Part shown: piece after piece, positions 9,548-37,288 of the stretch
Layout: the number at the start of each line of letters is the position of its first letter
How positions within the stretch are numbered: the stretch's first letter is position 1
The notes under the pieces: model-generated
Seen by the model: only the letters and a program-made list of their open reading frames with translations
Told to the model about the DNA's origin: nothing
Database searches by the model: none
Assembly (NCBI GenBank): GCA_003176165.1
Contig: PSRQ01000023.1
Coordinates: forward strand, 1 to 55,976
Source: Candidatus Cerribacteria bacterium 'Amazon FNV 2010 28 9'
Lineage (GTDB): Bacteria > Patescibacteriota > Microgenomatia > UBA1400 > UBA12028
Length of the DNA stretch: 55,976 bases
Direction: 5' to 3'
Translations under genes and position numbers: made by a program

Positions 9548-9548
9548 A

Positions 9549-23900: not shown

Positions 23901-25895
23901 AATAAAGGCAGTGCCACTCGCCCCACCCACAAAACATGCACCCTTGGCACAGCTAAAGAGAGTTGGGATGAAGTTTGGATCACTTGTATTGCCCACTTTG
24001 TCCAAATTTTTGATATCAGCCACATATCCAAATCGAGGCGCGCAGGTGATCATGTAATGAGAAGCCATTGATAATTGATCTTCTGGTGTGTTCTGATCTT
24101 CAATGCCGGGATAGATGTAGAGGCTACTTCCGAGCCCTTGTGTTTTACTACATGTATCTGGATCAATTTGGTTTCCGTCTGCATCAAAAATTTTCCCTTG
24201 GATAAAGTAAAACCAACTATTTGTTTGGTTACCGTGTTGTCCATTACAGTTGTTGACAATGAGTGTGGCTGCGCTGTTGATCCCGGAAGGAAGTTGTGTG
24301 GTTAATAACCAATTCAGTTGTTGTCGTAGCGAAAGATCTGGTTGCGAGCCCCAACCGTTAAAGTGGATGACGGGTTTGCCTGCGATTTGTTGAATAGCTA
24401 AATAGGTAGCGAGATTGCGATTGTGATTGGGAATCTGATTGACCATGTCAGAAGTAATGAGGGAGTCAAGATCGGAAGCAGGGGGTACATCAAACACGCT
24501 TTGTGCTAACCCATCGACCATGTCGTACACTCCAGCACTTTTCAGTGTCGTTGCAAATACATACGCACTGTATTCATTATTGTTTGGATCAAGTGAAGTA
24601 GGAGCGAGTACGTATTTTTGTCCTGGTCCATGATGGAGTTCCGCAGCAAATGCTTTGAATGTACTCGCATAATCAAGGGCTGCTTGACGAACGACAGAAG
24701 TATTTCCTTTATTATGGCTATAGCAGTACTCTTTTTCGAGGTTGTTCAGTTCATTTCCAAAGATGACGAGAGTTCCTGGTGGGAAAGCAGATGAATTATT
24801 GAGTTTGTCTGCAAACGCACGTGCTGCATCAGGCGTAGTATATTGAGCACCGGGATCATTACATCCCGCTGTCGTATCAACGATCGAGCCGTGGATACCA
24901 TAGACGCGCAAAAAGACATGCGCTCCTGGAGATGGATTATATGGAGAAGTCGGATCCTCAATACTATTTAATACTTGGACTGTTCCGCTGAAGCTATTTG
25001 GCTGGATCACTTTATCATTGACCCCTTGTTGTCCTTTTTGGTCGGCAAATGCAAGTTCAGGTCCTATTTTATCTCCATTTACTCCTGGACCACTACTTGG
25101 GATTGTTGCAGACCCACCTGAAGATAAGCCTCCAGATCCATTTTGTGAGGAACCTCCTGAAGAGCTTGAACCGCCATTACTCGTTCCACCACTTGAATTT
25201 CCCGCTCCCGTGACAGCAGCAGTAATGGCATCGGACAAAGCTGCTCGGCCTTGAGCGCTTAAGTGGACTCCATCGGAAGGTTTGCCCAAACAGGTTGAAA
25301 CTTCACATGTACTTTCCAAATCTGCACTTCCGAATCCAGAAATATTAATGACGGAAATATTTTTAATCGACTGAATTTGAGAATTCAGTGCCGACTCCGG
25401 AGTGCTGTCTAACATTGGCCAAATGAGCTTCGCGTAGGGAGGGTAATTGTGGGGAGTGTAGTAGTTAACGACAAATATGGTAGCAGTTGGATTCTTGGTT
25501 TGGATATCGCTCACAATTTGTTGGATCCCTGAAATAGTTGGTCCGGGAGTTTTGTTTTTTCCCATGTCGTTCACCCACGGTCCGACAACAAAATTCTGGC
25601 ATCCGCTATTTAGGAATGATTGATATGTTGAAGAATTGAGATACGTACTCAATGTGTCGGCCGGAACTGCAAAGTTTTTCCCCCCGGTCACTAAACTGGC
25701 GATAGTTTGGCCGCTGAATACCGGGGGATAATCTCTATAATTGCCTGCGTCGTAAGTGATGTTACCAGCTTCGACCGAATCTCCCGCAATCGCGACACAA
25801 CTATCTGCGTGTGCGGGTTTTGCAAACATAAAAAACCAAAGTGAAAGAGTGAACAAGAGGGAAGTAATCGATAATAAAAAGCGGCGCGCACGCAT
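20973..25895 (-). CDS. Giant secreted multi-domain enzyme: SGNH/GDSL hydrolase, Gly/Ser linker, TIM-barrel glycosidase-like region, phosphodiester-glycosidase (DUF2233)-like domain, lysozyme-like C-terminus
   Basis: Signal peptide ending AHA at residue 30. SGNH block I is AIAGDSVEAGN and block V is DGVHLSAQG. GS-rich linker at residues ~229-262. LVIFGNELNN is a GH-type NE motif. FRTAIGLKNNMLYIRTLAANPAGVKQAMADLGIDDGHFVMLDGDSV (from residue 1338) has the DUF2233 pattern. IWAQESGASNY lies near the C-terminus. Confidence 0.85.
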   Translation of the reverse strand: MRARRFLLSITSLLFTLSLWFFMFAKPAHADSCVAIAGDSVEAGNITYDAGNYRDYPPVFSGQTIASLVTGGKNFAVPADTLSTYLNSSTYQSFLNSGCQNFVVGPWVNDMGKNKTPGPTISGIQQIVSDIQTKNPTATIFVVNYYTPHNYPPYAKLIWPMLDSTPESALNSQIQSIKNISVINISGFGSADLESTCEVSTCLGKPSDGVHLSAQGRAALSDAITAAVTGAGNSSGGTSNGGSSSSGGSSQNGSGGLSSGGSATIPSSGPGVNGDKIGPELAFADQKGQQGVNDKVIQPNSFSGTVQVLNSIEDPTSPYNPSPGAHVFLRVYGIHGSIVDTTAGCNDPGAQYTTPDAARAFADKLNNSSAFPPGTLVIFGNELNNLEKEYCYSHNKGNTSVVRQAALDYASTFKAFAAELHHGPGQKYVLAPTSLDPNNNEYSAYVFATTLKSAGVYDMVDGLAQSVFDVPPASDLDSLITSDMVNQIPNHNRNLATYLAIQQIAGKPVIHFNGWGSQPDLSLRQQLNWLLTTQLPSGINSAATLIVNNCNGQHGNQTNSWFYFIQGKIFDADGNQIDPDTCSKTQGLGSSLYIYPGIEDQNTPEDQLSMASHYMITCAPRFGYVADIKNLDKVGNTSDPNFIPTLFSCAKGACFVGGASGTAFINHEQTTIPLFRFQNASAPDTSRLNDLESFFSNASLPNKDVSSAQDSINNFVASGNDSKSLALAPRCSNTLSFLHAIKTLCDNQPKSTTLINNTPDQITPPTTTNASQRCPLDLDVPGAGKSYLDVLSSAPPDFSCFNINASQASQAYAQLLSQVETTTPKAFKPAYIIHYTDYPYQNNTHIDRLASWFAPDGGSNLDKAKNRVKVTKVYVPANVASTSDDESAFTTVPGTGFNSGFMNTMLSQTSLETQNRIADDRKAQVSQVMQISRSEPLAIDPDPIGEKHVDCPECNSDQFLTTIVKRINAEIDRPHAPNEDDSTCMSSDLVGEKAQTIKTKINPDGNPDPVHEVAVGVKADLRGQEPNDHNLSTRTFMLLPEEYRNIADYGDVLAHTWLDPQYAGGVFPAGTTSKDTDVPGDGKSYKYLQLSDTAPKANGGLTVHMSSPQQPSTIVGFDRIAHSAVSLIGSINGEKIDTFDINPTVPGGRLTRALWEIVCHVLNPDPTKQTVPYAGFEKILQQGSSACYTTAPAPQCQPGQGSAATISQVGNGYEVTAPADASTLITSLPSEYGQKSCDWASGKGLAFALNANFGNSAHDPIGPFGFDGNITNVPPKPGTNPMSLMIDKNGTAHVYDWDGRSGNRADIKGTPDLTQAQFIVTGVYYDNFQPPYDGPLFRTAIGLKNNMLYIRTLAANPAGVKQAMADLGIDDGHFVMLDGDSVTQLCKANTDGTMTQVFPNPTDPNVQQAHYPFAVAVSMGIKAGSPSSSCSPAPGGNTNPGGSGDTSQTIACPGPKRIPIAANNVGCNANAPAPDASWLQLKQGVHYMVNQVVSISDPTSSGNQIDKCFNDVVDQSLAAGVNPIYTLTIWAQESGASNYARFPGVQDFGINSSSVVGFQAQLSSFLNLPYAYPPTFSQCFQNGCSWDNYSQAYHYGEFDSSCTITSGASAYAAKTMSNMSVVTQGHCDLPAYPTQMTSCH

Positions 25896-26307: not shown

Positions 26308-26784
26308 TTACGGTTGCGGTGTTGGTAATTGTGTATGGAAGTTGAGGAATGTCGAGACACCCGTGAGTTGTGAGAGAATACGTAAAATCAAAATGGACGT
26401 GAGTGCGACGACGATGCCGATGATTGCAAAGGTAATAGCCTTTTGCGCTTCTTCCACACCTTTGCTATTGTTGCCAGCTGTTAAATATTTAAATCCACCG
26501 ATCAAAAACATAATGAAAGCGACAAAACCAATGAACGTGATAGCGGTGGCAAGCACGTTGGAAACGAGGCATTCGACACCTTGGATGGTAGCAACCTGAG
26601 TAATATCAGAATTCGGAACCGTTGGTTTGTCCACAAATTGGTTTGTTTTTGAGTTGTAATATCTTCCACATTGAGCACTCCAGTCTGCTGTTTGCGCTGA
26701 AGCGGGTGAAAGCGGAGCTAATGATAAAAATAAAAAGAAAATCGGTAAAAAGATCCTTTTTATCTTTGAAAGAAGTTTTTTCAT
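26308..26784 (-). CDS. VirB2/TrbC-like T4SS pilin paralogue P1 (with Sec signal peptide)
   Basis: Signal peptide ending PASAQ. Core FLIGGFKYLTAGNNSKGVEEAQKAITFAIIGIVVAL forms a two-TM hairpin with a basic loop. Two Cys in the N-terminal mature part. Confidence 0.8.
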   Translation of the reverse strand: MKKLLSKIKRIFLPIFFLFLSLAPLSPASAQTADWSAQCGRYYNSKTNQFVDKPTVPNSDITQVATIQGVECLVSNVLATAITFIGFVAFIMFLIGGFKYLTAGNNSKGVEEAQKAITFAIIGIVVALTSILILRILSQLTGVSTFLNFHTQLPTPQP

Positions 26785-26814
26785 CGCAATATTAATTGTA
26801 TCATTCTTCTCATA

Positions 26815-26843
26815 AAGAAAAAGCCACCCTTGTGAGGTGGCTT
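26815..26843 (-). terminator. Rho-independent terminator after the TolB-like gene
   Basis: agccacc cttgtga ggtggct hairpin with a T-run on the minus strand. Confidence 0.6.
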
Positions 26844-26864
26844 AAAATATCAAAACTTTGATAC

Positions 26865-27818
26865 CTATTTATTACTGACCATGATAAGACCATTTTTTGT
26901 GCTTGGGTCATAGTCAACATAGGCGATTTGAGTTCCATCGGAGGACCAGCTAATCCACTCTACAACAGCATTTCCACCTTCATGAACGTGAATGTCTTTT
27001 AACCATTGGGTGGTTTTTGAACTGACATCATATTCTTTCAAGGAATCACCGTCCAGAAAAATCATTGTTTTTCCGTTCGGAGAAAGTGAACCAGTGGGAA
27101 CATCATTTCCTCCACGAATGGATGTCCCATCTGTTTTCATGATTGAACCGCCCCTAAAAATAACCCCTTGCGCCGTCCATGTTTGAATGTCTCCAAAACT
27201 GTAGTTCGAAAGCATTGTGCTTTTGCCTGTTTCAGTATCTAAGACACAAGTATGGACGAAGGTGCTATCATCTTTGGCTCCACATAAATAAGCAATTTGT
27301 TTCCCGTTAGGAGACCAAGCAAGTGTTGGATATGGAAATAATCCATCATCCGCATAACCTATGACCTCTAGTGGGAAATTTCCAGAATCGGTCGTGTCGA
27401 GGAAGCACGAGTGTTCAAGTGTGGTAATTACGACAATGCATACCCCGTACGATTCCTTGCTTCCATATCCGGGTGCATATGCAATCCTTGTTCCGTCTGG
27501 AGCCCATTTTGGACTTGTCCCTAGAACGATTTTATTGGGAACAGAATTACCATTTGAATCAGTTATGAAGATATTGTCATTCATAACATAAGCAATTCTA
27601 TTGTCCAAAGGAGACCAATCTGGTTGGCCGATTGAATCCCACTGAGAAGTTGTGGTAGCCACAGTATGAGTGGGGTAAAAGATGTTTCCCAAGGTGTATT
27701 TAGCCAAGTTAAACATCCAGAAACACAGTGCCAGTACAATGATTGACGGGATTAGTAATACTATTCCACATCCTGGTCCACTTTCAAGTGGGACGAGCAC
27801 AATCGCAAACCTACGCAT
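26865..27818 (-). CDS. Membrane-anchored TolB-like (PD40/WD40-like) beta-propeller protein
   Basis: N-terminal TM, then repeated PD40-type motifs SPKWAPDGTRIAY, AWSPNGKQIAYL, SLSPNGKTMIF, WSSDGTQIAYV. Start set to the ATG at 27818; the track uses a TTG at 27854. Confidence 0.8.
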   Translation of the reverse strand: MRRFAIVLVPLESGPGCGIVLLIPSIIVLALCFWMFNLAKYTLGNIFYPTHTVATTTSQWDSIGQPDWSPLDNRIAYVMNDNIFITDSNGNSVPNKIVLGTSPKWAPDGTRIAYAPGYGSKESYGVCIVVITTLEHSCFLDTTDSGNFPLEVIGYADDGLFPYPTLAWSPNGKQIAYLCGAKDDSTFVHTCVLDTETGKSTMLSNYSFGDIQTWTAQGVIFRGGSIMKTDGTSIRGGNDVPTGSLSPNGKTMIFLDGDSLKEYDVSSKTTQWLKDIHVHEGGNAVVEWISWSSDGTQIAYVDYDPSTKNGLIMVSNK

Positions 27819-28030
27819 TTGGTATATCCATCCTTTTTCTCTGGGTAGAGACAAGTTGTCTCATAAAATCCCAGATAGGGAAATGCACACTGTGAGCACT
27901 TTCCAATCTGGGAAACCAGAAAAAATCTTCTTCACATGTTATAGAGCAAAATACTCTCATCCGTTGGATGAACAGTGAGTATTGTGGTGTGAATTATAGC
28001 ACGAATTATGGGGTGGCCCTCTCTTACCTC

Positions 28031-28175
28031 GTCATCCCTGACGCGACGCGAAGCCGTCGAGTATCAGGGATCTTTAAACAGGTTACGATTGAATTATTTT
28101 GAGCATGTAGTACGAATTGCAGAAAGATCCCGGCTACTTGGCTCCCGCAGATGGCGGGGCCATGGCCAGGATGAC
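28031..28175 (+). repeat. Family-1 composite MITE-like element (B hairpin - spacer - A hairpin), copy 1
   Basis: Starts gtcatccctgacgcg and ends ggccaggatgac, giving terminal inverted repeats GTCATCCC/GGGATGAC. Homologous to 33301-33465 and, inverted, to 35650-35800. Confidence 0.8.
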
Positions 28176-28212
28176 GAGAAAAATTGTAGGGACTTGGAGC
28201 AAGGGAATATCC

Positions 28213-28238
28213 AAAAACCCCCGCTTGAAACGGGGGTT
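28213..28238 (-). terminator. Rho-independent terminator downstream of pilin P2, followed by a second hairpin at about 28257-28277
   Basis: acccccg cttgaaa cgggggt with a T-run on the minus strand. A second stem cctctcc/ggagagg follows. Confidence 0.65.
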
Positions 28239-28320
28239 CTTATTTCTCTTTGTTTTCCTCTCCATTTTTTGGAGAGGAACTCTGGCAGGTTCCCGTACAC
28301 GGGTGCCAGAGAGGTGCGGC

Positions 28321-28698
28321 TTAGTAAGGTTGTGGCAAACTAATACTTGAGCCGACACGAATACCAAAGAAGGTACTCAAGACTTGTGAGATGGCGAAGG
28401 CTGCTGCGACGATGGCCAAACCAATGATGGCGTTGGTCAATTTTTGACGAGCACTCTCGGTCTTACTCTTGTCACCACCAGCGGTGATCCACTCGACACC
28501 ACCCCAAACGAGGTAGATGAAGACGAGCAAACCAACGATACCAAGGGTAACGGTCAACAATGAGTTAATCAATTTTCCAAGATCACTAATTTTGAAACCA
28601 GCGTTGGATGGGTCAACATTGATGGTTTGTGCGTACGCTGTACTAGCGAGTAAGAGACCACTCACAGCGGTACTTGCTTGTACGATCTTTTTTAACAT
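28321..28698 (-). CDS. VirB2/TrbC-like T4SS pilin paralogue P2 (candidate major pilin, Sec signal peptide)
   Basis: Signal peptide MLKKIVQASTAVSGLLLASTAYAQ. Core LVWGGVEWITAGGDKSKTESARQKLTNAIIGLAIVA. It has its own promoter-like and terminator signals. Confidence 0.85.
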   Translation of the reverse strand: MLKKIVQASTAVSGLLLASTAYAQTINVDPSNAGFKISDLGKLINSLLTVTLGIVGLLVFIYLVWGGVEWITAGGDKSKTESARQKLTNAIIGLAIVAAAFAISQVLSTFFGIRVGSSISLPQPY

Positions 28699-28750
28699 AC
28701 ATTCTCCTCTTTTTTCTTTGGACGATTACGATGTGATGTCCAGAGTATAG

Positions 28751-28778
28751 TATATACCACTCTCATTTACTTTTGCAA
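28751..28778 (-). promoter_or_regulatory. Sigma70-like promoter for pilin P2
   Basis: The minus strand reads TTGCAA - 16 nt - TATATA. AGGAG sits just upstream of the ATG at 28698. Confidence 0.45.
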
Positions 28779-28804
28779 ATTTTTTACATCAATGCAAAGA
28801 ATCA

Positions 28805-29278
28805 TTATTGCAATGAACAAGGAATGAGTCCGGGTGAACAATGGTCGTACGGGGGGCAGATCTTTGCAACTTGATGACCTCCTTTAGCTGTACAATCTGA
28901 AGGTGCTGTGCACCAAGGACTACATTGTGCACTCGAAGAACCACCTCCATTACCACTCAATGTAATATCGGTAATACCAAAGAATTTGAGCAAGATGCCG
29001 TAGAGCGCGAACACTGCTGCAAAGATTGCAAGGCCGATGATAGCTTGTGTGATCATTTCGCGTGCATGTTCTACTTTTCCTTTGTCGCCACCAGCAGTGA
29101 TCCAGTTGAATCCACCGAGTAACAAGTAGAGCAGGACAGCCAGCGCTGCGACGACGAGAATTGCTCCTGCGCCCATCTCAACGAGATGACCCAAATCTGT
29201 TACTTTTGAAATATTGCCAGAAACAGCTTGAGATTGAATATCTAATACATTTTGAGCGATGAGAGTAGATAGAATCAT
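28805..29278 (-). CDS. T4SS pilin paralogue P3 with a Cys-rich C-terminal extension
   Basis: Core LLLGGFNWITAGGDKGKVEHAREMITQAIIGLAIFA. The tail GGGSSSAQCSPWCTAPSDCTAKGGHQVAKICPPYDHCSPGLIPCSLQ has 6 Cys. ATG at 29278 lies 1 nt after the upstream stop. Confidence 0.8.
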   Translation of the reverse strand: MILSTLIAQNVLDIQSQAVSGNISKVTDLGHLVEMGAGAILVVAALAVLLYLLLGGFNWITAGGDKGKVEHAREMITQAIIGLAIFAAVFALYGILLKFFGITDITLSGNGGGSSSAQCSPWCTAPSDCTAKGGHQVAKICPPYDHCSPGLIPCSLQ

Positions 29279-29279
29279 A

Positions 29280-29693
29280 TTAATTAGCACAAGGCTTTCC
29301 TGGTACGCAAGGAGCAGGTGCAGTACCTCCTACTGGTGTAATAGTAACGTTATTTTCGAAAGACGGTTTTAAGAGGGGAATGCCAAGGCGATCACCAATA
29401 AAACCTGTAATAGCTACTGTTCCTACGAGTACAAGCATCCCAATAATCGATTGAGTAATTCTCTCACGAGCCTGTTCGATTTTACCTTTTTCGCCACCGG
29501 CTGTGATCCATTCAAAAGCTCCAATGACAAGCATGATAAGAAGAGCGAGGCCTCCGAGAGTAATGGCAGTCCTCCATACGGTAACAATGATATTTGTGAG
29601 TGCTAGTGCTGGAGCCACTCCACCTTGACCACCAAACGTACCAGTCACCACAGGGTTTGTAATTTCTTCGGATTGTGCAATGAGTGCAAACAT
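29280..29693 (-). CDS. T4SS pilin paralogue P4
   Basis: Core LVIGAFEWITAGGEKGKIEQARERITQSIIGMLVLV. Short C-terminal tail with 2 Cys. Confidence 0.8.
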   Translation of the reverse strand: MFALIAQSEEITNPVVTGTFGGQGGVAPALALTNIIVTVWRTAITLGGLALLIMLVIGAFEWITAGGEKGKIEQARERITQSIIGMLVLVGTVAITGFIGDRLGIPLLKPSFENNVTITPVGGTAPAPCVPGKPCAN

Positions 29694-29697
29694 AAGT

Positions 29698-30087
29698 TTA
29701 TGGTTTTAATGATTGTAATATTCGAGCAGGACTTAAGATGTCAATACCTAGAACACCACCAATGATTCCGGCAATTCCATACGCTGCAATAACGATGATG
29801 AGACCAAGCGCAGCATTCACCATTTGTTGCCTTGCATGCTCAATTTTACCTTTTTCTCCACCTGCAGTAATCCACTCTAGAGCTGCAAAAATGAAGTAAA
29901 TCAAAAACATGAGACCAGCTAGCGTGGTGAGAAAACCTAAGAAAGAAGAGAGGAAATGACTCAATTGATCTCCCGCAGCATTACCAGCACCGACAAGATT
30001 GGTTTCCCCCGCAACTGGAGCAAAGGCAGAAGAGGCGGGTTTTAATTGGCCGAGTGGAATGTTGTTGAGTTGTGCAATCAGTGACAT
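29698..30087 (-). CDS. T4SS pilin paralogue P5
   Basis: Core FIFAALEWITAGGEKGKIEHARQQMVNAALGLIIVI. Confidence 0.8.
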   Translation of the reverse strand: MSLIAQLNNIPLGQLKPASSAFAPVAGETNLVGAGNAAGDQLSHFLSSFLGFLTTLAGLMFLIYFIFAALEWITAGGEKGKIEHARQQMVNAALGLIIVIAAYGIAGIIGGVLGIDILSPARILQSLKP

Positions 30088-30088
30088 A

Positions 30089-30463
30089 CTATGGTCCTAA
30101 TTTTCCGACACCTTGAATGTGTGGGTTTAAGATGAATGTTGCATCTCCAAAGAGCAGGAAACTAACGATCGCTGTAATTGTGAAGGATCCGACGATAATA
30201 ATTAGACCAATTAAGCTGTAGAGAAGTTTATTGTTTGCTTCTTCAGCTGCTTTGGGATTGCCACTTGAACCGAGCCAAGTAAAACCTGCGGAAATGATAT
30301 TAAATGCTCCGAAAAGTCCGGCGACAACTGTAATAACCTTGAGCATGGTATTGATAAAGGGAACAAGTCCTAATCCTGTACCACCACTGAACGCTTGAAG
30401 AGGAGAGGGCTCTGGAAGTTGTCCAAAAATCGAATCAGCGATGAGATGCGGTGGCACAATCAT
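30089..30463 (-). CDS. T4SS pilin paralogue P6 (SSGNPK subtype)
   Basis: Core NIISAGFTWLGSSGNPKAAEEANNKLLYSLIGLIIIV. Confidence 0.75.
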   Translation of the reverse strand: MIVPPHLIADSIFGQLPEPSPLQAFSGGTGLGLVPFINTMLKVITVVAGLFGAFNIISAGFTWLGSSGNPKAAEEANNKLLYSLIGLIIIVGSFTITAIVSFLLFGDATFILNPHIQGVGKLGP

Positions 30464-30472
30464 ACGATTATT

Positions 30473-30826
30473 TTACAACGTTGAGCTAAAAATTGGTACT
30501 CCTGTAATCAGTTCAACCAATCGGACTAACCAGTACGCAACAAAGATAACGACAAAACCAAGAATAGCGCCTGTGATAGCTTGTGTTCCTTTTTCGGTAG
30601 CTTTAGGATTTCCAGCTGAGGAAATGATCATAACTCCACCAAACACAAGATAGAGGAGAAGGATAAAGCCAGCCAGCACAAAAGCGTTTGGGAGGATTAG
30701 CTGAAGAAAATCTTTTACTTGGTTGTATTTCCCCACATCACCTCCAACAGTAGTACCTGTGTTGGGATTTAGAATTAAACTTTTTCCTAAATCAAAGCCC
30801 CCTGAAGACGATTGTGCGAGTAACAT
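30473..30826 (-). CDS. T4SS pilin paralogue P7 (SSGNPK subtype)
   Basis: Core LVFGGVMIISSAGNPKATEKGTQAITGAILGFVVIF. Confidence 0.75.
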   Translation of the reverse strand: MLLAQSSSGGFDLGKSLILNPNTGTTVGGDVGKYNQVKDFLQLILPNAFVLAGFILLLYLVFGGVMIISSAGNPKATEKGTQAITGAILGFVVIFVAYWLVRLVELITGVPIFSSTL

Positions 30827-30856
30827 ATTTTCTATTATTATAATGTTTCTCTAAAA

Positions 30857-32095
30857 TTATTCATTAGGAAAATCAATTTGCCAATCTTCTTGACCAGCTT
30901 CGTTGCCTGTGTCTATTACGACAGAATTTCCTGTTGAATCCCAAATAGCATTCCAAATGTACCATTGACCATTGATTTGTATATTTCTTTGGCCATCTGG
31001 TTGAACAATAGATATGAAGTAAAAAGCATCAATATCTGATCGATACGTTTCGTAAATAATCCACTTTCCACTAGGAGCCCAGACAGCATGGTGACCCGTC
31101 GCTATTGTGCGGACATAATTTCCATTTACGTCTAGAATTATAATGTCATGATCGTGATGTGATGTTGCAATTCCGTAGTCAGAGAGAACAATAAATTTCC
31201 CATCAGGAGACCAAGAAGCAAAACTGTATGGTTTTTCCCAATTATAGCTTTTTAAAACCTTTAAATTAGCTCCATTAATATCCGAAACTATGATCTTACT
31301 TTCTTTAGCATCTTGGTCATATGAAGTTGTAACCAATTTGTTTCCATCAGGGGAAAAAGAAACAAACCCTGAATTTTGGAAGGATCCAACAATTCTGCCT
31401 GAAGGATCTTTAATTATGAGATTCCCATCACCGTCTAATGTAGCAACTTTAGTGGAATCTGAGGATGTTGCAGGGTTGTCCATGTAGTTGGGCCTAGGGT
31501 AGGACGATTTCCCTGAAAGCTTAGTAATCACGGGATTATCAATTTTTACCGGAACTTTAGTATGAATTTCTGTAGGGATTTCGGTTGGAGTAAGAGTATG
31601 TGTTGGTGAGGGTGTACTTGTGGGTACTGCAGCACTCGCTTGTCCGTTTTTGGATTCTGCAATTAGCCCAATACCTACTGCAAGAGCAAGTACAGCCCCA
31701 CCAAAAAGTGCAACAGCCTTGGTATTTATTGGTTGTTGTTTTTGTTCCTCCTCTTGGAGACTAACTGAAATGTTAATAAAATGGGTTGGTCGTCCCTCTA
31801 TCTCTACGCGAATCGTCTCTTCTACTGTTTCTCCTAGTTGGCCTGCAATAGTGGTGTCAACTGTAAAGGAAAAACGAAGAGGGAAGAGTCCATACGCATT
31901 TTTGGGAAGCATCACTTTTGTGGCCCAGGCGGGTTGATCCACCCACCCAAAACTTCCTAACTCTGCCATACTGCTTCCATGTAAATCGAATAAAACGGTT
32001 ACCGTTTCTTTTCTTCCTCTTTGAAAAGGACCAAGCTCTACAAAACGGTTTATTTCATCTGGCTCTTCGTGGTGTCTTTTGTATTCTTTCCCCAT
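30857..32095 (-). CDS. Membrane protein: ~150-aa cytoplasmic domain, TM, Thr/Pro linker, TolB-like beta-propeller
   Basis: PD40-type motifs FSPDGNKLVTT, SWSPDGKFIVLS, VWAPSGKWIIYE. TM is AVALFGGAVLALAVGIGLIA. Start set to the ATG at 32095 so it does not overlap the divergent sigma gene. Confidence 0.75.
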   Translation of the reverse strand: MGKEYKRHHEEPDEINRFVELGPFQRGRKETVTVLFDLHGSSMAELGSFGWVDQPAWATKVMLPKNAYGLFPLRFSFTVDTTIAGQLGETVEETIRVEIEGRPTHFINISVSLQEEEQKQQPINTKAVALFGGAVLALAVGIGLIAESKNGQASAAVPTSTPSPTHTLTPTEIPTEIHTKVPVKIDNPVITKLSGKSSYPRPNYMDNPATSSDSTKVATLDGDGNLIIKDPSGRIVGSFQNSGFVSFSPDGNKLVTTSYDQDAKESKIIVSDINGANLKVLKSYNWEKPYSFASWSPDGKFIVLSDYGIATSHHDHDIIILDVNGNYVRTIATGHHAVWAPSGKWIIYETYRSDIDAFYFISIVQPDGQRNIQINGQWYIWNAIWDSTGNSVVIDTGNEAGQEDWQIDFPNE

Positions 32096-32183
32096 ATATG
32101 ACCTTATATAATAAATCAAGGCGTGATTATAGGTATGTCTCGATGTGAAGTCAAGAGAAGAGAGAAAAGTGTACAATAGGTAC

Positions 32184-32732
32184 ATGTTTGGTACTGATAC
32201 TCCGTCGTTTATCAATGCAATGAAGAAAGGTGAGCAGCGGGCTATCCGAGCATGGTACACCACATATGCTCCCAAGCTTGCTTCTTTTTTTTCATCGCGC
32301 ACTCGTGTGGCGAGTGATGTCGATGAGCTTGTCCATGATACATTTCTTTCGTGCCTTTCCTCACTTCCGCTTTTCCGTGCGGAAAGTGGCTTGTGGTCGT
32401 GGATGATGGGGATTGCGAGACATGAATTGTCGGATTATTACCGCAAGTTGTATGCAAAACGAGTCATCCATGCGTTACCACTTGGAGACACGCTTTTGGA
32501 AGCAGCAGAAAAACAAACATCAGGAAAGCATGAGGATACACTCGCGACACTGGCACGTTTGCCCAAGACAGTGGCAGAGCTTTTGCGCCTCAAGTATATC
32601 GATAAACAACCTGTGGAGCAGATCGCACAAGCGTTGTCGATCGAGCCGCACGCAGTGCAGGGGAGGTTGTACCGGGCGCGAAAAGCATTTAAAAAACTCT
32701 ACGATGAAATAGCAGAAGCAGAAAACACATGA
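32184..32732 (+). CDS. ECF-type sigma-70 family RNA polymerase sigma factor
   Basis: Region 2: DELVHDTFLSCLSSLPLFRAESGLWSWMMGIARHELSDYYRK. Region 4 HTH: LPKTVAELLRLKYIDKQPVEQIAQALSIEPHAVQGRLYRARKAFKKL. Confidence 0.85.
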   Translation: MFGTDTPSFINAMKKGEQRAIRAWYTTYAPKLASFFSSRTRVASDVDELVHDTFLSCLSSLPLFRAESGLWSWMMGIARHELSDYYRKLYAKRVIHALPLGDTLLEAAEKQTSGKHEDTLATLARLPKTVAELLRLKYIDKQPVEQIAQALSIEPHAVQGRLYRARKAFKKLYDEIAEAENT

Positions 32733-32968
32733 AATCACGTGATCCTTTTTTACAAGAACTTGAACTGCGAGCCAAAGAGCAGGCCCGTATTGCGCAGTCT
32801 TCTCGATTACCACAAGTTGTGCGTCCTTTCGCAGCCTTGTTTGGTGAGAGGTCTTGGCAGATGCTCCTGGGCATATCTTTTATACTCGCTGGCGTACTTG
32901 CGACTTGGTCATTTCGCTTTCTGTATATGATGTATGAGAAAGGAGTGTTGCAATGGCTCGTACGGTAG
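32729..32968 (+). CDS. Small single-TM protein, positional candidate anti-sigma factor
   Basis: ATGA overlap with the sigma-gene stop. 79 aa with one TM (MLLGISFILAGVLATWSFRFL). No ZAS motif. Confidence 0.5.
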   Translation: MKSRDPFLQELELRAKEQARIAQSSRLPQVVRPFAALFGERSWQMLLGISFILAGVLATWSFRFLYMMYEKGVLQWLVR

Positions 32969-33291
32969 TCAAGCGTGCAACAGAGGTCGTGGTTCCCGAA
33001 GTGGTGCTCAGCTACCACATCGGGGTAGTGGCAGTGGGGTTACTGCGTCATCCCTATAAAACGGTACAAGATGTTGTGCGTTCCAAAATTCCGGGAATTA
33101 TTATTCTTTTTCCCATATTTGTGTGGATGGTAGCGAGTATTATCCTTCGTGTTTTTGACGATCTTTTCTTTGCATTTATCCCGTTTATTGGTTTCTGGTG
33201 GTTCTTTTTTGTATGGGTGAGTGTGTTTACACTTTTGTGGCAAATTCTTCTTCTGTACCTGTATTTTCGTTTTTCAAGTGTGATGAAGTAA
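32953..33291 (+). CDS. Small polytopic membrane protein
   Basis: 112 aa with 3 hydrophobic helices. Overlaps the preceding ORF by 16 nt, consistent with an operon. Confidence 0.5.
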   Translation: MARTVVKRATEVVVPEVVLSYHIGVVAVGLLRHPYKTVQDVVRSKIPGIIILFPIFVWMVASIILRVFDDLFFAFIPFIGFWWFFFVWVSVFTLLWQILLLYLYFRFSSVMK

Positions 33292-33300
33292 GCTGTTCTC

Positions 33301-33465
33301 GTCATCCCTGACGCGAATGAACATAAGTTTACGAATGTTCTTTTCGAGTATCAGGGATCTTTTAACACGTAACTATACTGTTATTTTTTTTTACTTATTT
33401 TGCACGAATTGCATAAAGATCCCGGCTACTTGACTGCACCGAAGGTGCGTCACGGCCGGGATGAC
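33301..33465 (+). repeat. Family-1 composite MITE-like element, copy 2
   Basis: gtcatccctgacgcg...cgagtatcagggatcttttaac - spacer - aaagatcccggctacttgactgcaccgaaggtgcgtcacggccgggatgac. Confidence 0.8.
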
Positions 33466-33546
33466 AAAACGACAGGACAGATTGTTGGGCGAGTGATTTG
33501 ATATCTTCTTTGCGACTTCACCTGTATCTGTAGAAAAAGGAGGCGT

Positions 33547-33750
33547 ATGGGTGTCGAACAACATGTAGCGCAGAATTGGCGAAATCAGCGTGAACGTTAT
33601 AATTTGTTGGCAAGAAATTGTCTAGGTTGTGGTGAAACAATATTGGCGGGACGGCAAGTATGCTCCAAGTGTTCAACAGCTGAGAGTAAACAAACAACAC
33701 TACCCTTTGAACCAATCCCTATTCCTTTTATTGAAAAGGCAGCTCGATAG
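33547..33750 (+). CDS. Small zinc-ribbon protein (resembles the N-terminal Zn-ribbon of DUF35 proteins)
   Basis: AAGGAGG 6 nt upstream of the ATG. RYNLLARNCLGCGETILAGRQVCSKCS is a CxxC...CxxC ribbon. No OB-fold part follows. Confidence 0.55.
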   Translation: MGVEQHVAQNWRNQRERYNLLARNCLGCGETILAGRQVCSKCSTAESKQTTLPFEPIPIPFIEKAAR

Positions 33751-33761
33751 AAAGGAAATAT

Positions 33762-33932
33762 ATGGCAATACAAGAACAACTCACTGAAGTAGGACAAGAA
33801 TTTGACAAAAAAACATATGAAGAAGTAATGCAGCAGCTACGTTTGCAAGTTATGGCTATGATTGAGCATGTCTCTGTTCATGAACCGATCAGGCCTGAAG
33901 ATCAACCAACTGATGAGAACGAAATCATGTAG
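33762..33932 (+). CDS. Possible 56-aa acidic protein (below the ORF-track cutoff)
   Basis: ATG at 33762 preceded by aaagga. Translates MAIQEQLTEVGQEFDKKTYEEVMQQLRLQVMAMIEHV... and stops 3 nt before the next gene. Confidence 0.3.
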   Translation: MAIQEQLTEVGQEFDKKTYEEVMQQLRLQVMAMIEHVSVHEPIRPEDQPTDENEIM

Positions 33933-33935
33933 CCT

Positions 33936-34760
33936 ATGTCTTCCTCTCTTGTCTTCCTAAAACTGGGTGGTGCGGTGATTACCAACAAAGATATCCCTGA
34001 ATCTGTGCGGGAAGGAGTGTTATCACGGTTGATCGGTGAGATTGCTCGTGCACGCAAAGAAAAAGATATGACGTTGGTACTTGGGAATGGTGCAGGAAGT
34101 TTCGCGCATGTACCGGCAGCGCGGTATAAAACGATGGATGGATTTATCCACCCGGAAAGTCGGATGGGCATGGCGATCACGCAAGACGCTGCGGCACGAT
34201 TAAATCGTATTGTCGTGAACGAGTGCTTGAAGCATGAAATTCCCGCGCTCACACTTGCTCCCTCCAATACTCTGGTTACCTCAAAAAAAGAAATGCACGA
34301 TTGGTGTGGTGCATGTTTGGAAACATATCTAGAGCAGGGAATGGTTCCAGTAACATATGGAGATGTTCTCGCGGATACACAACAAGGTTGCACTATTTGG
34401 TCAACGGACAAAGTATTTGCTTTCTTGGCTCGCCAATGTATGAAAAAGGGAATGACTGTCTCTACCATAATCCATGTGACGGAAGCAGAAGGGGTATGGA
34501 AATCAGGGGTTGGCGATCAGAGGTTGGGGGATAGAAAACCAATTTACCCAATTATTACGTCTGCGATGCAAGAAGAAGTGAAAGCCGCAATGGTTGATAC
34601 CAAAGGATTTGATGTGACTGGTGGCATGTGGCACAAAATTGAAGAGTCTCTCTTGTTGGCAAATGAAGGTATCCAGACACGTATCATTTCTGGATTGGTG
34701 AAAGACAATGTATATAAAGTACTGATGGGTGATGAGAAAATTGGAACGACAATTCGGTGA
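33936..34760 (+). CDS. Isopentenyl phosphate kinase (amino-acid-kinase fold)
   Basis: FLKLGGAVITNK, VLGNGAGSFAHVPA, GDVLAD, FDVTGGMWHKIEE and a C-terminal VYKVLMGDEKIGTTI parallel the archaeal IPK signature blocks (KLGGS.IT.K / GGGSFGH / DVTGGM). Confidence 0.8.
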   Translation: MSSSLVFLKLGGAVITNKDIPESVREGVLSRLIGEIARARKEKDMTLVLGNGAGSFAHVPAARYKTMDGFIHPESRMGMAITQDAAARLNRIVVNECLKHEIPALTLAPSNTLVTSKKEMHDWCGACLETYLEQGMVPVTYGDVLADTQQGCTIWSTDKVFAFLARQCMKKGMTVSTIIHVTEAEGVWKSGVGDQRLGDRKPIYPIITSAMQEEVKAAMVDTKGFDVTGGMWHKIEESLLLANEGIQTRIISGLVKDNVYKVLMGDEKIGTTIR

Positions 34761-34764
34761 CTTT

Positions 34765-34865
34765 GTCATCCCGTACGGCATGGCGAAGCCAGGCGGATAC
34801 GGGATCCAGGCAGAAAGAATATTTAAATTGCTAAGGAGATGGATTCCTGCTTTCGCAGGAATGAC
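34765..34865 (+). repeat. Family-2 composite hairpin repeat, copy 1
   Basis: gtcatcccgtacgg...ggatacgggatccagg - spacer - ggattcctgctttcgcaggaatgac. Its translation (WIPAFAGMT) falsely extends the uppS ORF in the track. Confidence 0.75.
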
Positions 34866-34893
34866 AAGAAAAAAATCATTTATAATACCTCCT

Positions 34894-35616
34894 ATGACTT
34901 CAAGCACAACAATTCCTCATCATGTAGCCATCATCATGGATGGTAATCGCCGGTGGGCGCGCTCCCATGGGTGGCAGGCGATCAAAGGGCATGAGTATGT
35001 CGTGGATCACATCCTTGAGCCGCTCGTGGATCGCTGTATTGAACTTGGAATTGAGTATCTTACGCTCTGGGCATTTAGTACAGAAAATTGGCAGCGGGAT
35101 CGTCTGGAACTGGAAGGAATGATGCAACTTTTTCGTCGTGCCTTTACACACAAAATTGAAGAGCTCAATGCCAAAGGCGTGCGATTTCGCATCATTGGGA
35201 ATATTGATAAGTTCCCCAAAGATATTGCTATTCAAGCAAAAGATTGGGTAGAAAAAAGTGCACACAATACAAAAATCACAGTAAATTTTGCACTTAATTA
35301 TGGTGGCAGGGAAGAAATACTTGGTGCTGTTAATGCGATTCTAAAAGAGAGAGAAGAAGAGAAGAAGAGAGGGAGAGAAAACGATGAATTAGTTGGTTCA
35401 CAGGAGTTTGAATCACATCTTTCAACCGCGGGGATTCCTGATCCGGACCTCATCATTCGTCCCGGCGGACAATTGCGACTTTCTGGCTTTTTACCTTGGC
35501 AATCTGTCTATTCAGAGCTTTACTTTACTGATGTGTTGATGCCAGAGTTTACGGTTGAAGAATTGGATAAAGCGTTGGAAGATTACGCGAACAGGCAACG
35601 AAGGTTTGGAAAATAA
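34894..35616 (+). CDS. uppS: Undecaprenyl (isoprenyl) diphosphate synthase, cis-prenyltransferase
   Basis: HVAIIMDGNRRWA, LTLWAFSTENWQR, ALNYGGREEI, IRPGGQLRLSGFLPWQSVYSELYF. Start moved to the ATG at 34894, downstream of the repeat. Confidence 0.92.
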   Translation: MTSSTTIPHHVAIIMDGNRRWARSHGWQAIKGHEYVVDHILEPLVDRCIELGIEYLTLWAFSTENWQRDRLELEGMMQLFRRAFTHKIEELNAKGVRFRIIGNIDKFPKDIAIQAKDWVEKSAHNTKITVNFALNYGGREEILGAVNAILKEREEEKKRGRENDELVGSQEFESHLSTAGIPDPDLIIRPGGQLRLSGFLPWQSVYSELYFTDVLMPEFTVEELDKALEDYANRQRRFGK

Positions 35617-35649
35617 TCTACTTAGTGGTTTTTCAAGTTTCTTTTTTTA

Positions 35650-35800
35650 GTCATCCCGGCCATGGCTCTGCGACGCAGAAGCCAAGTAGCCGGGATCTTT
35701 TTGGAATTCGCGCTCTACAATTCAATCCTCACTTGTTAAAAGATCCCTGATACTCGGAATGATCCATCGTAAACTCAGGATCATCCGCGTCAGGGATGAC
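35650..35800 (-). repeat. Family-1 composite MITE-like element, copy 3 (inverted orientation)
   Basis: Its reverse complement aligns module-for-module with 33301-33465 and 28031-28175, ending gcgtcagggatgac. Confidence 0.8.
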
Positions 35801-35845
35801 GAAGTACAAGAATAGTAAGAAAAATAAAAATGCGGAGAAGTAAAA

Positions 35846-36205
35846 CTATCCAACGATACTCACTCCGAGAATGAGCTCGACGATACGCGCGAGCCAGTAG
35901 GCGCAGAAGATAATAAGAAACCCAACCAAAGCAGTGGTGATACGTTGTCTGCCTGCTTCTTGTTGTTTGGGATTGGTGGCTCCGGTGAGCATTTCAAATC
36001 CTCCCCACACAATCATGACAAAGAGAATGAGACCTGCGGCTGTAAACAAGTAGGGCATAAGGGAAGTGATGATGCCACGAGGAGTGACTTGATCGGGAGG
36101 CACGGCGTTTTTATCCGAGAGCGCTTTCCCGCCAGTGCCAAAAATTGCATTGTTCACGTTGGTGAACAAATCTTTGGTGCTGAGTGATGAATCTGCAAGC
36201 AACAT
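35846..36205 (-). CDS. T4SS pilin paralogue P8 (SSGNPK subtype)
   Basis: Core IVWGGFEMLTGATNPKQQEAGRQRITTALVGFLIIF. Confidence 0.75.
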   Translation of the reverse strand: MLLADSSLSTKDLFTNVNNAIFGTGGKALSDKNAVPPDQVTPRGIITSLMPYLFTAAGLILFVMIVWGGFEMLTGATNPKQQEAGRQRITTALVGFLIIFCAYWLARIVELILGVSIVG

Positions 36206-36214
36206 ATATTTCCT

Positions 36215-37288
36215 TTAGACTCCAAATCCTGGGATATGGAGAAGTGTGACACCGATAAAGTGTAAGATGATAGCCGAGAAAATCACGAACAAAAGTCCGA
36301 TGATCGCGGCACTAATCATTTGTTGGGCTTCTTCGACTTGTTTGGGATTGCCGCTGCTGGTGGCGAGCATAAATGAGCCAGCAAGGATCGCCAATACGAC
36401 AATTCCGCCCGATAATCCTAACCCTATTTGAACAATCGACGTAACTATTCCTGAAAGATTGGTAGGAACACAACCAAAAGCGGTCCACAAAGAGTTTGGT
36501 TGACCTTTATCTCCCGTTGTTCCTGTCATATCTGCACTATTTGCTCCATAGCATTTTTCACATGCTAATTTGTCTTCTGCTGAGCCTGCTTGATTACACA
36601 GGGAAAAGTATGCCGGAGTGGTAGTCGTAGACGAACCCCCGCCATTTTTTATCTTGCTGTATGAATCTTGTGATTTAAAGAAACAAAAATTTTGATGGTC
36701 GGCTAGTTCTGCTACACACTCACAATCTTGAGCTTGAACTCCAGCATCAGAGGGGCTATTGAAGCATAATTTATATGTATTTCCATGCGTTCCATGATCA
36801 CAAGAACTATCACTGTATGAATAACAATCAGAAGTAGGAGCAATTTGTGAAACCTTCAATAATTGAGAATTACCACAAACGATAGGGTTCGGGAGGGCAA
36901 CAATATTGACGTAGTACTGGTATGTACCCGCATTGGGTTCATTTTTTATAAAAGAAACATTGCAACCAGTGTCTGTGTTTGAAAAAGTAAGATCTTTTGT
37001 TGGGACCACATAATCAGAAGCGTGATTAGAACCACAGCTATTGTCACTGGTGTTGCAAAAACTAATAGAGATGTTGTTATTTGTAGAACTACAATTGCCA
37101 CCAGTAATGCTACTTGGAAGAGTAAAGCTAACATTGGTAGTGCTTCCTGGCTGAATTTCAGAAGGTGAAATTGAAGAAGAAACGGAAGAGCATGCAGAAT
37201 CTGCCCAAGCTTTTTTTGGTTGCGCGAACACAAGGGTAAAAAGAGAAAAGAACAAAAACAGAGCGATCAATGTCGTGACGCGCTTCAT
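36215..37288 (-). CDS. Cys-rich secreted domain fused to a C-terminal T4SS pilin module (P9)
   Basis: Signal peptide MKRVTTLIALFLFFSLFTLVFAQP. A ~280-aa Ser/Thr/Asn/Cys-rich region follows, then ILAGSFMLATSSGNPKQVEEAQQMISAAIIGLLFVI. Confidence 0.75.
   Translation of the reverse strand: MKRVTTLIALFLFFSLFTLVFAQPKKAWADSACSSVSSSISPSEIQPGSTTNVSFTLPSSITGGNCSSTNNNISISFCNTSDNSCGSNHASDYVVPTKDLTFSNTDTGCNVSFIKNEPNAGTYQYYVNIVALPNPIVCGNSQLLKVSQIAPTSDCYSYSDSSCDHGTHGNTYKLCFNSPSDAGVQAQDCECVAELADHQNFCFFKSQDSYSKIKNGGGSSTTTTPAYFSLCNQAGSAEDKLACEKCYGANSADMTGTTGDKGQPNSLWTAFGCVPTNLSGIVTSIVQIGLGLSGGIVVLAILAGSFMLATSSGNPKQVEEAQQMISAAIIGLLFVIFSAIILHFIGVTLLHIPGFGV

Follow-up and report, generated by a model that had tools for sequence, protein, structure and literature searches.

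The DNA analyzed here, a window of ~56 kb from Candidatus Cerribacteria (class Microgenomatia, Patescibacteria; assembly GCA_003176165.1), carries nine small genes, P1 to P9, whose products belong to the type IV secretion system (T4SS) pilin family PF18895. We favor a reading, at a probability of about 0.5, in which the nine proteins would be the pilin-like small subunits of a monoderm T4SS near oriC that resembles the mating-pair-formation class FATA (MPF-FATA), with P2 as the predicted major subunit and the other paralogues as non-redundant minor subunits. By sequence comparison, the array reads as an old, ordered set of paralogues conserved gene for gene across the class Microgenomatia, with no sign of recent expansion.

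As an earlier reading of the sequence alone had proposed (the original prediction), all nine open reading frames (ORFs) are intact paralogues on the minus strand, each encoding two long hydrophobic segments with a short charged loop between them:

26308..26784, minus strand: P1, 158 amino acids (aa), last gene of the predicted ancestral seven-gene array; signal peptide ending ASA/Q, N-terminal tail with two Cys, loop AGNNSKG; PF18895 score, 30.1 bits
28321..28698, minus strand: P2, 125 aa, candidate major subunit; signal peptide ending AYA/Q, two hydrophobic helices, loop WITAGGDKSK; 43.7 bits
28805..29278 (29290 with the GTG start), minus strand: P3, 157 aa from ATG 29278; N terminus MILSTLIAQ, loop WITAGGDKGK, no signal peptide; 20.7 bits
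29280..29693, minus strand: P4, 137 aa; N terminus MFALIAQ, loop WITAGGEKGK, C-terminal tail with 2 Cys, no signal peptide; 27.5 bits
29698..30087, minus strand: P5, 129 aa; N terminus MSLIAQ, loop WITAGGEKGK, no signal peptide; 33.5 bits
30089..30463, minus strand: P6, 124 aa, most divergent paralogue; loop SSGNPK, no signal peptide; 25.9 bits, and 39.4 bits to NCBIfam family NF045849 (cut-off 40)
30473..30826, minus strand: P7, 117 aa, first in the tight run; N terminus MLLAQ, loop SAGNPK; 31.9 bits
35846..36205, minus strand: P8, 119 aa, second of the separate P9-P8 pair; N terminus MLLAD, loop GATNPK; 37.7 bits
36215..37288, minus strand: P9, 357 aa; signal peptide, ~200-aa Cys-rich ectodomain, Cys-rich linker, and C-terminal pilin module ending PGFGV; 20.8 bits at residues 279 to 345

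The hidden Markov model (HMM) for T4SS pilins, proposed earlier as a check, matched 9/9 proteins, six of them (P1, P2, P4, P5, P7, and P8) above the curated PF18895 gathering cut-off of 26.6 bits. P3, P6, and P9 score below it, yet they have E values of at most 4.5e-4 and clear orthologues. In a broad family alignment (A3), 130 of 132 relatives also match PF18895, and membership of the nine is solid. With an HMM built from the nine, no additional paralogue turned up in the window (next best E = 0.83). Stop-codon recoding and a polyprotein were considered and rejected; each stop that separates neighboring tandem genes is TAA or TAG, and the frames are mostly different.

The two loop subtypes of the original prediction are largely recovered, with WITAGG[DE]K[GS]K in P2 to P5, xGNPK or TNPK in P6 to P9, and AGNNSKG in P1; P8, with GATNPK, departs from the proposed pattern at its first position. 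Intergenic distances are 9 nucleotides (nt) for P7-P6, 1 nt for P6-P5, 4 nt for P5-P4, 106 nt for P3-P2, and 9 nt for P9-P8. P4 and P3 are 1 nt apart if P3 starts at ATG 29278 and overlap by 11 nt if it starts at GTG 29290; the ATG start matches the N termini of the P3 orthologues. With this start, the tight tandem spacing predicted for P3 to P7 holds, at 1 to 9 nt.

A scan of species-representative genomes yielded 79 related loci, which, where named, all belong to Microgenomatia lineages (Woese-, Collier-, Pace-, and Gottesmanbacteria). Among the array-bearing metagenome-assembled genome records, many (L008, L010 to L012, and many others) name "uncultured Pseudomonadales" or "Gammaproteobacteria" in their titles, and one names "Spirochaetia"; these titles look taxonomically wrong. 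On contigs with a P5 orthologue, the gene order is a divergent extracytoplasmic function (ECF) sigma factor, P7, P6, P5, P4, P3, P2, P1, a protein of 1200 to 1450 aa, and a protein of ~600 aa, with the P9-P8 pair lying upstream, beside uppS and spoIID. The best BLAST matches are always the positional counterparts, at 43 to 75% identity, compared with 23 to 53% among paralogues within the window. Orthologue identities are 47 to 53% for P1 (which directly adjoins P2 in the relatives), 62 to 75% for P2, 50 to 64% for P3, 59 to 65% for P4, 49 to 70% for P5 (36 orthologues, alignment A2), 57 to 63% for P6, and 50 to 63% for P7; the nearest paralogue of P8 is P7, at 51%. Similarly, a neighbor-joining tree places each paralogue with its three positional orthologues.

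The same tree separates the two loop subtypes unequally. P2 with P3 and P4 with P5 join as a WITAGG clade, whereas a second group holds (P7, P8), P9, and P1, and P6 sits apart on a long branch. The WITAGG subtype that had been proposed is thus a real clade; the NPK subtype, which had been proposed alongside it, is not a clade and forms at most a loose grouping.

The 79 loci have 6 to 11 pilin-like ORFs per 20 kb, with a mode of nine. In 42 of 84 loci (a count that includes a few duplicates), the contiguous array is seven genes long, with four tight gaps followed by two of ~60 to 110 nt. The order of types is perfectly collinear with that of the window in 50 of 73 loci, with a mean of 1.6 inversions versus 13.7 for shuffled orders. 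These comparisons point to an ancestral unit of seven genes, consisting of five tightly packed genes (P7-P6-P5-P4-P3), a P2-type gene, and P1.

The original prediction had called a nine-member repertoire unusual. Although unusual relative to canonical T4SSs, such a repertoire is ordinary in Patescibacteria and Microgenomatia: nine pilin-like ORFs are the commonest count in our own comparison, and arrays of 2 to 11 genes are published, including a data set entry for this genome (Quinonero-Coronel et al. 2025, PMC12102498). That survey screened 3,035 Patescibacteria genomes using PF18895 together with further pilin profiles and reported 441 VirB2 arrays of 2 to 11 pilin genes, in tandem or with one gene between, in 383 assemblies. 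The arrays were most abundant in Microgenomatia and Saccharimonadia, and their in-array identity averaged 25%, with a maximum of 54%. Its Table S1 lists GCA_003176165.1 as Microgenomatia, VirB4 "Yes." The genes of the window fall within its array definition (at least two pilin genes in tandem or one gene apart, plus VirB4), with P7 to P2 in tandem, P1 following after one PD40 gene, and P9-P8 forming a pair; pairwise identities of 23 to 53% also lie within the low in-array range.

Over the set of loci, each of the first four gaps between genes spans a few bases or is an overlap, whereas the two wider gaps lie before and after the P2-type gene. A Shine-Dalgarno-like motif stands 5' of the P2-type gene in 39 of 62 loci versus 41 of 269 tightly packed genes, and a GC-rich hairpin with a T-run stands 3' of it in 40 of 62 loci versus 2 of 62 for the preceding gap. 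In the window, AAGAGGAG could be read directly before the ATG of P2, the Shine-Dalgarno motif being GAGGAG, and P2 is flanked by two further candidate signals:

28208..28238, minus strand: predicted intrinsic terminator directly after P2, with stem AACCCCCG-TTTCAA-CGGGGGTT, then TTT
28749..28778, minus strand: promoter-like site upstream of P2, TTGCAA-18 nt-TATACT, from a consensus scan

As read after the stop codon, the terminator is canonical, AACCCCCG-TTTCAA-CGGGGGTTTTT, and its stem was also flagged by the scan that gave the promoter-like sites. That scan further gave a promoter-like TTGGCA-17-AATAAT at 30884 to 30856, 5' of P7; this gene has no visible Shine-Dalgarno motif. Because promoter-like sites in the region occur at the chance level (23 versus 20.7 in shuffled sequence), the site upstream of P2 is weak evidence alone, and none of these sites was used as evidence beyond its position.

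The idea that many different pilins are co-translated is better expressed as probable co-transcription and translational coupling of P7 to P3, whereas P2 appears to be expressed separately and more strongly than the tight run. P2 also has the highest PF18895 score of the nine and is the most conserved paralogue. We take it as the likely major subunit because of its bracketing by a Shine-Dalgarno motif and a terminator, its top conservation, and its position closest to the TrbC family. Together, these features support one abundant subunit with co-expressed, non-interchangeable minor subunits over a set of interchangeable variants.

The N termini divide the nine proteins differently. P1, P2, and P9 have predicted signal peptides ending A-x-A/Q. 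P3 to P8 begin with M-x-(L)LIAQ or LLAD and cannot carry a signal peptide, because a stop codon lies 3 to 8 codons upstream of each start. Of the 37 sequences in the P5 alignment, nearly all have a short start of the LIAQ type (M-x-L-[IL]-A-Q), and "AQ" is the majority consensus in the 132-sequence family alignment; leader statistics over the 79 loci are noisy, with uncertain start codons, and are given as an observation only. The conserved LIAQ start may mark a site of processing or of packing. A leader can be dispensable for inserting a two-helix hairpin whose termini both face outward, as illustrated by ATP-synthase subunit c, which uses YidC. The AlphaFold model of P5 is a helical hairpin (helices 37 to 74 and 79 to 112; predicted local distance difference test [pLDDT] score, 71.5). 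The C-terminal tail of P3 comprises ~50 aa with 6 Cys.

P9, listed in the original prediction simply as a pilin gene, does contain a pilin module, but only in the last ~80 of its 357 residues. The preceding linker is conserved and Cys-rich (F-x-L-C-x-Q ... C-x-x-C ... W-T-A-x-G-C), and the module ends PGFG. A search of a collection of 5.8 billion proteins found no homologue of the P9 ectodomain, with matches covering only the C-terminal 25 to 53% of the protein, and the head domain appears to be effectively unique. In its AlphaFold model, residues 87 to 222 have pLDDT values below 50, and confidence is high for the linker and the hairpin. Proteins of 300 to 960 aa in other genomes end in the same pilin module, sometimes encoded directly after P1.

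A Pfam scan of the window placed the array on the same chromosome segment as a secretion cluster ~20 kb away. The window opens with dnaA and dnaN, which the VirB4/PrgI/M23-CHAP cluster adjoins; the genes outside this cluster and the array are housekeeping genes. The recognizable components are as follows:

4176..6047, minus strand: VirB4-type ATPase of the associated secretion system; Pfam P-loop_TraG (108.8 bits), AAA_10, and CagE_TrbE_VirB
7426..8484, minus strand: PrgI family (VirB3-like) protein; Pfam PrgI, 43.5 bits
9549..13232, minus strand: 1227-aa cell-wall hydrolase with M23 and CHAP domains, in a VirB1/PrgK role; Peptidase_M23, 45.7 bits; CHAP, 26.1 bits

This is a chromosomal, oriC-proximal, monoderm-type T4SS as described for Patescibacteria. 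Three ORFs in or beside the VirB4/PrgI cluster, 6098 to 7282 (394 aa), 8549 to 9583 (344 aa), and 15500 to 18934 (1144 aa), have no Pfam match, even at E ≤ 1. Since VirB6 homologues are described as "scarce" in Microgenomatia in the 2025 survey (PMC12102498), a highly divergent VirB6 or VirB8 may be among these three.

The VirB2/TrbC label given to the nine proteins in the original prediction stands on weaker ground than was supposed there. What is supported is membership of the T4SS pilin family PF18895 and the location of the genes on the same segment as a VirB4-type cluster. For TrbC itself (PF04956), only P2 matches, at 21.9 bits (E = 2.1e-4), below the gathering cut-off of 27.9 bits, and 7 of 132 relatives match at E ≥ 2e-4, values that unrelated membrane families reach as well. 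An hhalign comparison of the family profile with Agrobacterium VirB2 (sequence verified against PDB 8cue) was not significant (probability, 0.4%; E = 0.14), nor was one with a 17-sequence VirB2 alignment (probability, 0.33%; E = 0.18), which is a weak negative since that alignment is narrow (59 to 73% identity), the word-indexed search having returned close relatives only. A sequence search of the PDB with the P5 profile (A2) and the broad family profile (A3) found no pilin, giving only spurious membrane-protein matches at E ≥ 0.1. Similarly, a Foldseek search of the PDB with the P5 model gave no match at E ≤ 0.001; its top match was the conjugation pilin 8dfu of the archaeon Aeropyrum pernix (E = 1.5; TM scores, 0.31/0.44).

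Among outside families, the most specific match is given by NF045849, the "Mbov_0395 family pilin-like conjugal transfer protein" of Mycoplasma integrative and conjugative elements (ICEs). All nine proteins match it at 17.5 to 39.4 bits, short of the cut-off of 40, as do 86 of 132 relatives at E ≤ 1e-3; every other family is matched by at most one relative. These scores indicate related proteins rather than members of the equivalog. Because Mycoplasma ICEs are monoderm conjugative elements, the pilin module may have come with a monoderm (MPF-FATA) T4SS and not from a diderm system, a choice that the 2025 survey leaves open (PMC12102498).

Experimental data from two other Patescibacteria bear on function. 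In the cultivated Southlakia epibionticum, six PF18895 genes (SEML1_0014-0019) each score first as growth-defect and then as essential by transposon sequencing (Wang et al. 2023, PMC10633639, Table S1). The gaps calculated from the published coordinates are 26, -4, 5, 20, and 83 nt, that is, five tight genes, a gap, and a last gene, which is annotated there as "pilin" with a TrbC match (PMC10633639). In Mycosynbacter amalyticus, cryo-electron tomography revealed a tube between parasite and host that is 8.6 nm wide and 61 nm long (PMC11880426). The tube is circumstantial evidence for a filament. A width of 8.6 nm resembles that of a conjugative pilus.

In the mechanism we favor, the five tight genes (P7 to P3) would be translationally coupled, mostly without Shine-Dalgarno motifs and without signal peptides; after a spacer of ~60 to 110 nt would come the P2-type gene, with its signal peptide, strong Shine-Dalgarno motif, and own terminator, and then P1. 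The separate P9-P8 pair would add a subunit with a hypervariable extracellular domain. Each protein would span the membrane as a helical hairpin, its two termini facing outward and its basic loop facing the cytoplasm. P2, as the most abundant product, would build the main part of a filament or conduit that depends on the T4SS; the other paralogues would be low-abundance, non-interchangeable subunits with priming, base, tip, or adaptor roles, and variable surface domains would be presented to the host cell by P9 and by the Cys-rich tails that P3 and P4 carry.

Several points weigh against this mechanism. Homology to structurally characterized VirB2 could not be demonstrated by hhalign, PDB sequence search, or Foldseek, and a helical hairpin is a generic fold. 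Filaments built from these proteins are not known from any Patescibacterium, and the array lies ~20 kb from virB4 rather than adjacent to it. P3 to P8 have no signal peptides, unlike the known VirB2, TraA, and TrbC precursors. The assignment of major and minor subunits draws on sequence signals only, with promoter-like matches at the level of chance, and the essentiality of the upstream Southlakia genes could reflect polar effects on the last gene.

The original prediction had offered a heteropolymeric filament or minor pilins as possible meanings of the repertoire, and our data are consistent with this. In a fuller form, which we put forward tentatively and regard as somewhat doubtful, Microgenomatia, and probably Patescibacteria, would build a heteropolymeric VirB2-type filament or conduit from a P2-type major subunit, six to eight fixed minor subunits in defined roles, and P9-type subunits with hypervariable, host-facing domains, the module having been inherited with a monoderm MPF-FATA system and not from diderms. 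If so, T4SS pili would show a division of labor not known for them before, akin to that of minor-pilin complexes in type II secretion and type IV pili.

The best-surviving alternative, which we nonetheless judge rather unlikely, is that the proteins form no filament and serve instead as small integral-membrane components of the translocation channel or of the assembly platform in a monoderm T4SS, like VirB3/PrgI or the small transmembrane proteins of Mycoplasma ICEs, some of them anchoring surface domains. It would suit a family whose most specific outside match, NF045849, is to Mycoplasma ICEs and which has no significant match to any solved pilin in the PDB sequence, Foldseek, and hhalign searches. 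Most copies lack a signal peptide, and the proteins of 300 to 960 aa that end in the pilin module do so as if it were a membrane anchor. Monoderm conjugation systems, moreover, are not known to make VirB2 pili, according to the survey (PMC12102498). Nine channel subunits of a single fold would lack precedent, however, and P2, with its signal peptide, Shine-Dalgarno motif, and terminator, resembles a high-copy structural subunit. PF18895 membership, the weak TrbC similarity, and the ~8.6-nm tube imaged in a Patescibacterium (PMC11880426) likewise point away from such a platform.

We consider it quite improbable that the paralogues are alternative, interchangeable pilins for host-strain versatility or defense evasion, as proposed for the VirB2 arrays of Bartonella and Anaplasma; adaptation to different hosts is also suggested for the patescibacterial arrays in the survey (PMC12102498). 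Variation of that kind would be in keeping with the low identity within arrays, both here and in the survey, with a copy number of 6 to 11 per locus, and with exposed parts that vary, the P9 ectodomain being without a homologue and the N- and C-terminal tails differing in length and Cys content. Variation systems, however, evolve by lineage-specific duplication, loss, and gene conversion, whereas here the genes are 1:1 positional orthologues, in fixed order in 50 of 73 loci, and orthologues resemble each other more than paralogues do. Tight coupling, further, implies joint rather than alternative expression, and all six Southlakia array genes score as essential in the published table.

The notion that one copy functions while the others are redundant or decaying, which the sub-cut-off Pfam scores of P3, P6, and P9 might suggest and which the original prediction had named as grounds for abandoning its proposal, is highly implausible, as all nine ORFs are intact and each is conserved and non-decaying, in length, order, and sequence, across dozens of species-level genomes of a strongly reduced lineage, with 43 to 75% identity between positional orthologues. 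Against these alternatives, the subunits of a T4SS with P2 as the probable major component remain our preferred reading.

The genes that flank the array in the window are in part conserved and in part lineage-specific insertions:

26865..27854, minus strand: PD40 beta-propeller gene between P2 and P1, outside the ancestral array; Pfam PD40/DPPIV_N
30857..32302, minus strand: second PD40 beta-propeller gene, between the divergent sigma-factor gene and P7; Pfam PD40
32145..32732, plus strand: ECF-type sigma-70 factor, conserved divergent neighbor; Pfam Sigma70_r2/r4_2
20973..25895, minus strand: 1640-aa secreted protein directly downstream of P1, conserved syntenic partner; 31 to 45% identical over ~1000 aa to the post-P1 proteins of the relatives L001, L002, and L004
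19032..20870, minus strand: 612-aa protein, second conserved gene downstream of the array; 47 to 56% identical to its counterparts in L001, L002, and L004

The first PD40 gene is absent from the same position in L001, L002, and L004, where P2 and P1 are directly adjacent; in the window, only this inserted gene parts P1 from the array. In the relatives, the sigma-factor gene abuts P7 directly, without a PD40 gene. The two PD40 (WD40-like) genes, which this genome alone has within the array region, are lineage-specific insertions that detached P1 and the sigma factor from the array. The sigma-70 gene stands beside P7 also in L001, L002, L004, and L005. Two small ORFs come after it within 32145 to 33291 (79 and 112 aa, the latter hydrophobic). 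All close relatives retain this group as the divergent neighbor of P7, and it may be a sigma/anti-sigma pair that regulates the array.

In close relatives, counterparts of the 1640-aa and 612-aa proteins always follow P1 (31 to 56% identity). A Pfam scan of the two proteins gave nothing above threshold, only a weak GDSL-lipase match for the 1640-aa protein (E = 0.0048). Both may work with the system, whether as cargo, as adhesins, or in wall degradation.

Patescibacteria account for a large share of uncultivated bacterial diversity and live attached to host cells. With the T4SS and pilin array essential in the one species tested, the array is a central problem already recognized in the literature. 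The fixed order, 1:1 orthology, and bracketed P2-type gene narrow the hypotheses toward a multi-subunit structure with one predicted major and several minor components.

Among known systems, type II secretion and type IV pili combine one abundant subunit with an operon of low-abundance paralogues of the same fold that have fixed, non-redundant roles. The analogy is functional only, as their fold is unrelated (a single N-terminal helix, prepilin peptidase cutting after Gly, and different ATPases). VirB2, TrbC, and TraA of diderm T4SSs (PF04956; T-pilus PDB 8cue and 8exh) are likewise small proteins with two hydrophobic helices and a short basic loop; the VirB2 cleavage site AAA/Q resembles the A-x-A/Q leaders of P1, P2, and P9, and P2 has its weak TrbC match. 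In contrast to diderm VirB2, 6 of the 9 proteins lack a signal peptide, the bacterium that carries them is a monoderm, and many paralogues stand in place of a single gene.

Bartonella and Anaplasma, according to the survey (PMC12102498), have multicopy virB2 loci in which several divergent VirB2-type genes also lie in tandem beside a T4SS. Those systems are diderm and P-type, with copies read as antigenic or host-range variants, whereas the window's genes are ancient 1:1 orthologues in an order fixed class-wide. The Mbov_0395/MMCAP2_0565 family of Mycoplasma ICEs (NF045849), an 80-position profile matched near full length, belongs to monoderm conjugation of the MPF-FATA type, a class related to patescibacterial VirB4 (PMC12102498). 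Its scores here, at 17 to 39 bits, stay under the cut-off of 40.

The closest counterparts are the patescibacterial arrays themselves, including that of Southlakia, which share PF18895, tandem layout, low in-array identity, and a pattern of five tight genes, a gap of ~85 nt, and a last gene. They also share a chromosomal location close to dnaA and to a VirB4/PrgI cluster in which neither a relaxase nor a coupling protein is obvious. Nothing categorical sets the window apart from them; it differs in its two PD40 insertions and its ~20-kb distance from virB4. The available portions of PMC12102498 and PMC10633639 make no mention of positional orthology, bracketing of the P2-type gene, or leaderless N termini. 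Our comparative additions, namely class-wide positional orthology, the 5+1+1 architecture, leaderless N termini, and the hypervariable P9 head, sharpen a testable model within the same category. Published work already describes the phenomenon and includes this genome, and the locus is a typical, clean example of such an array, not an oddity.

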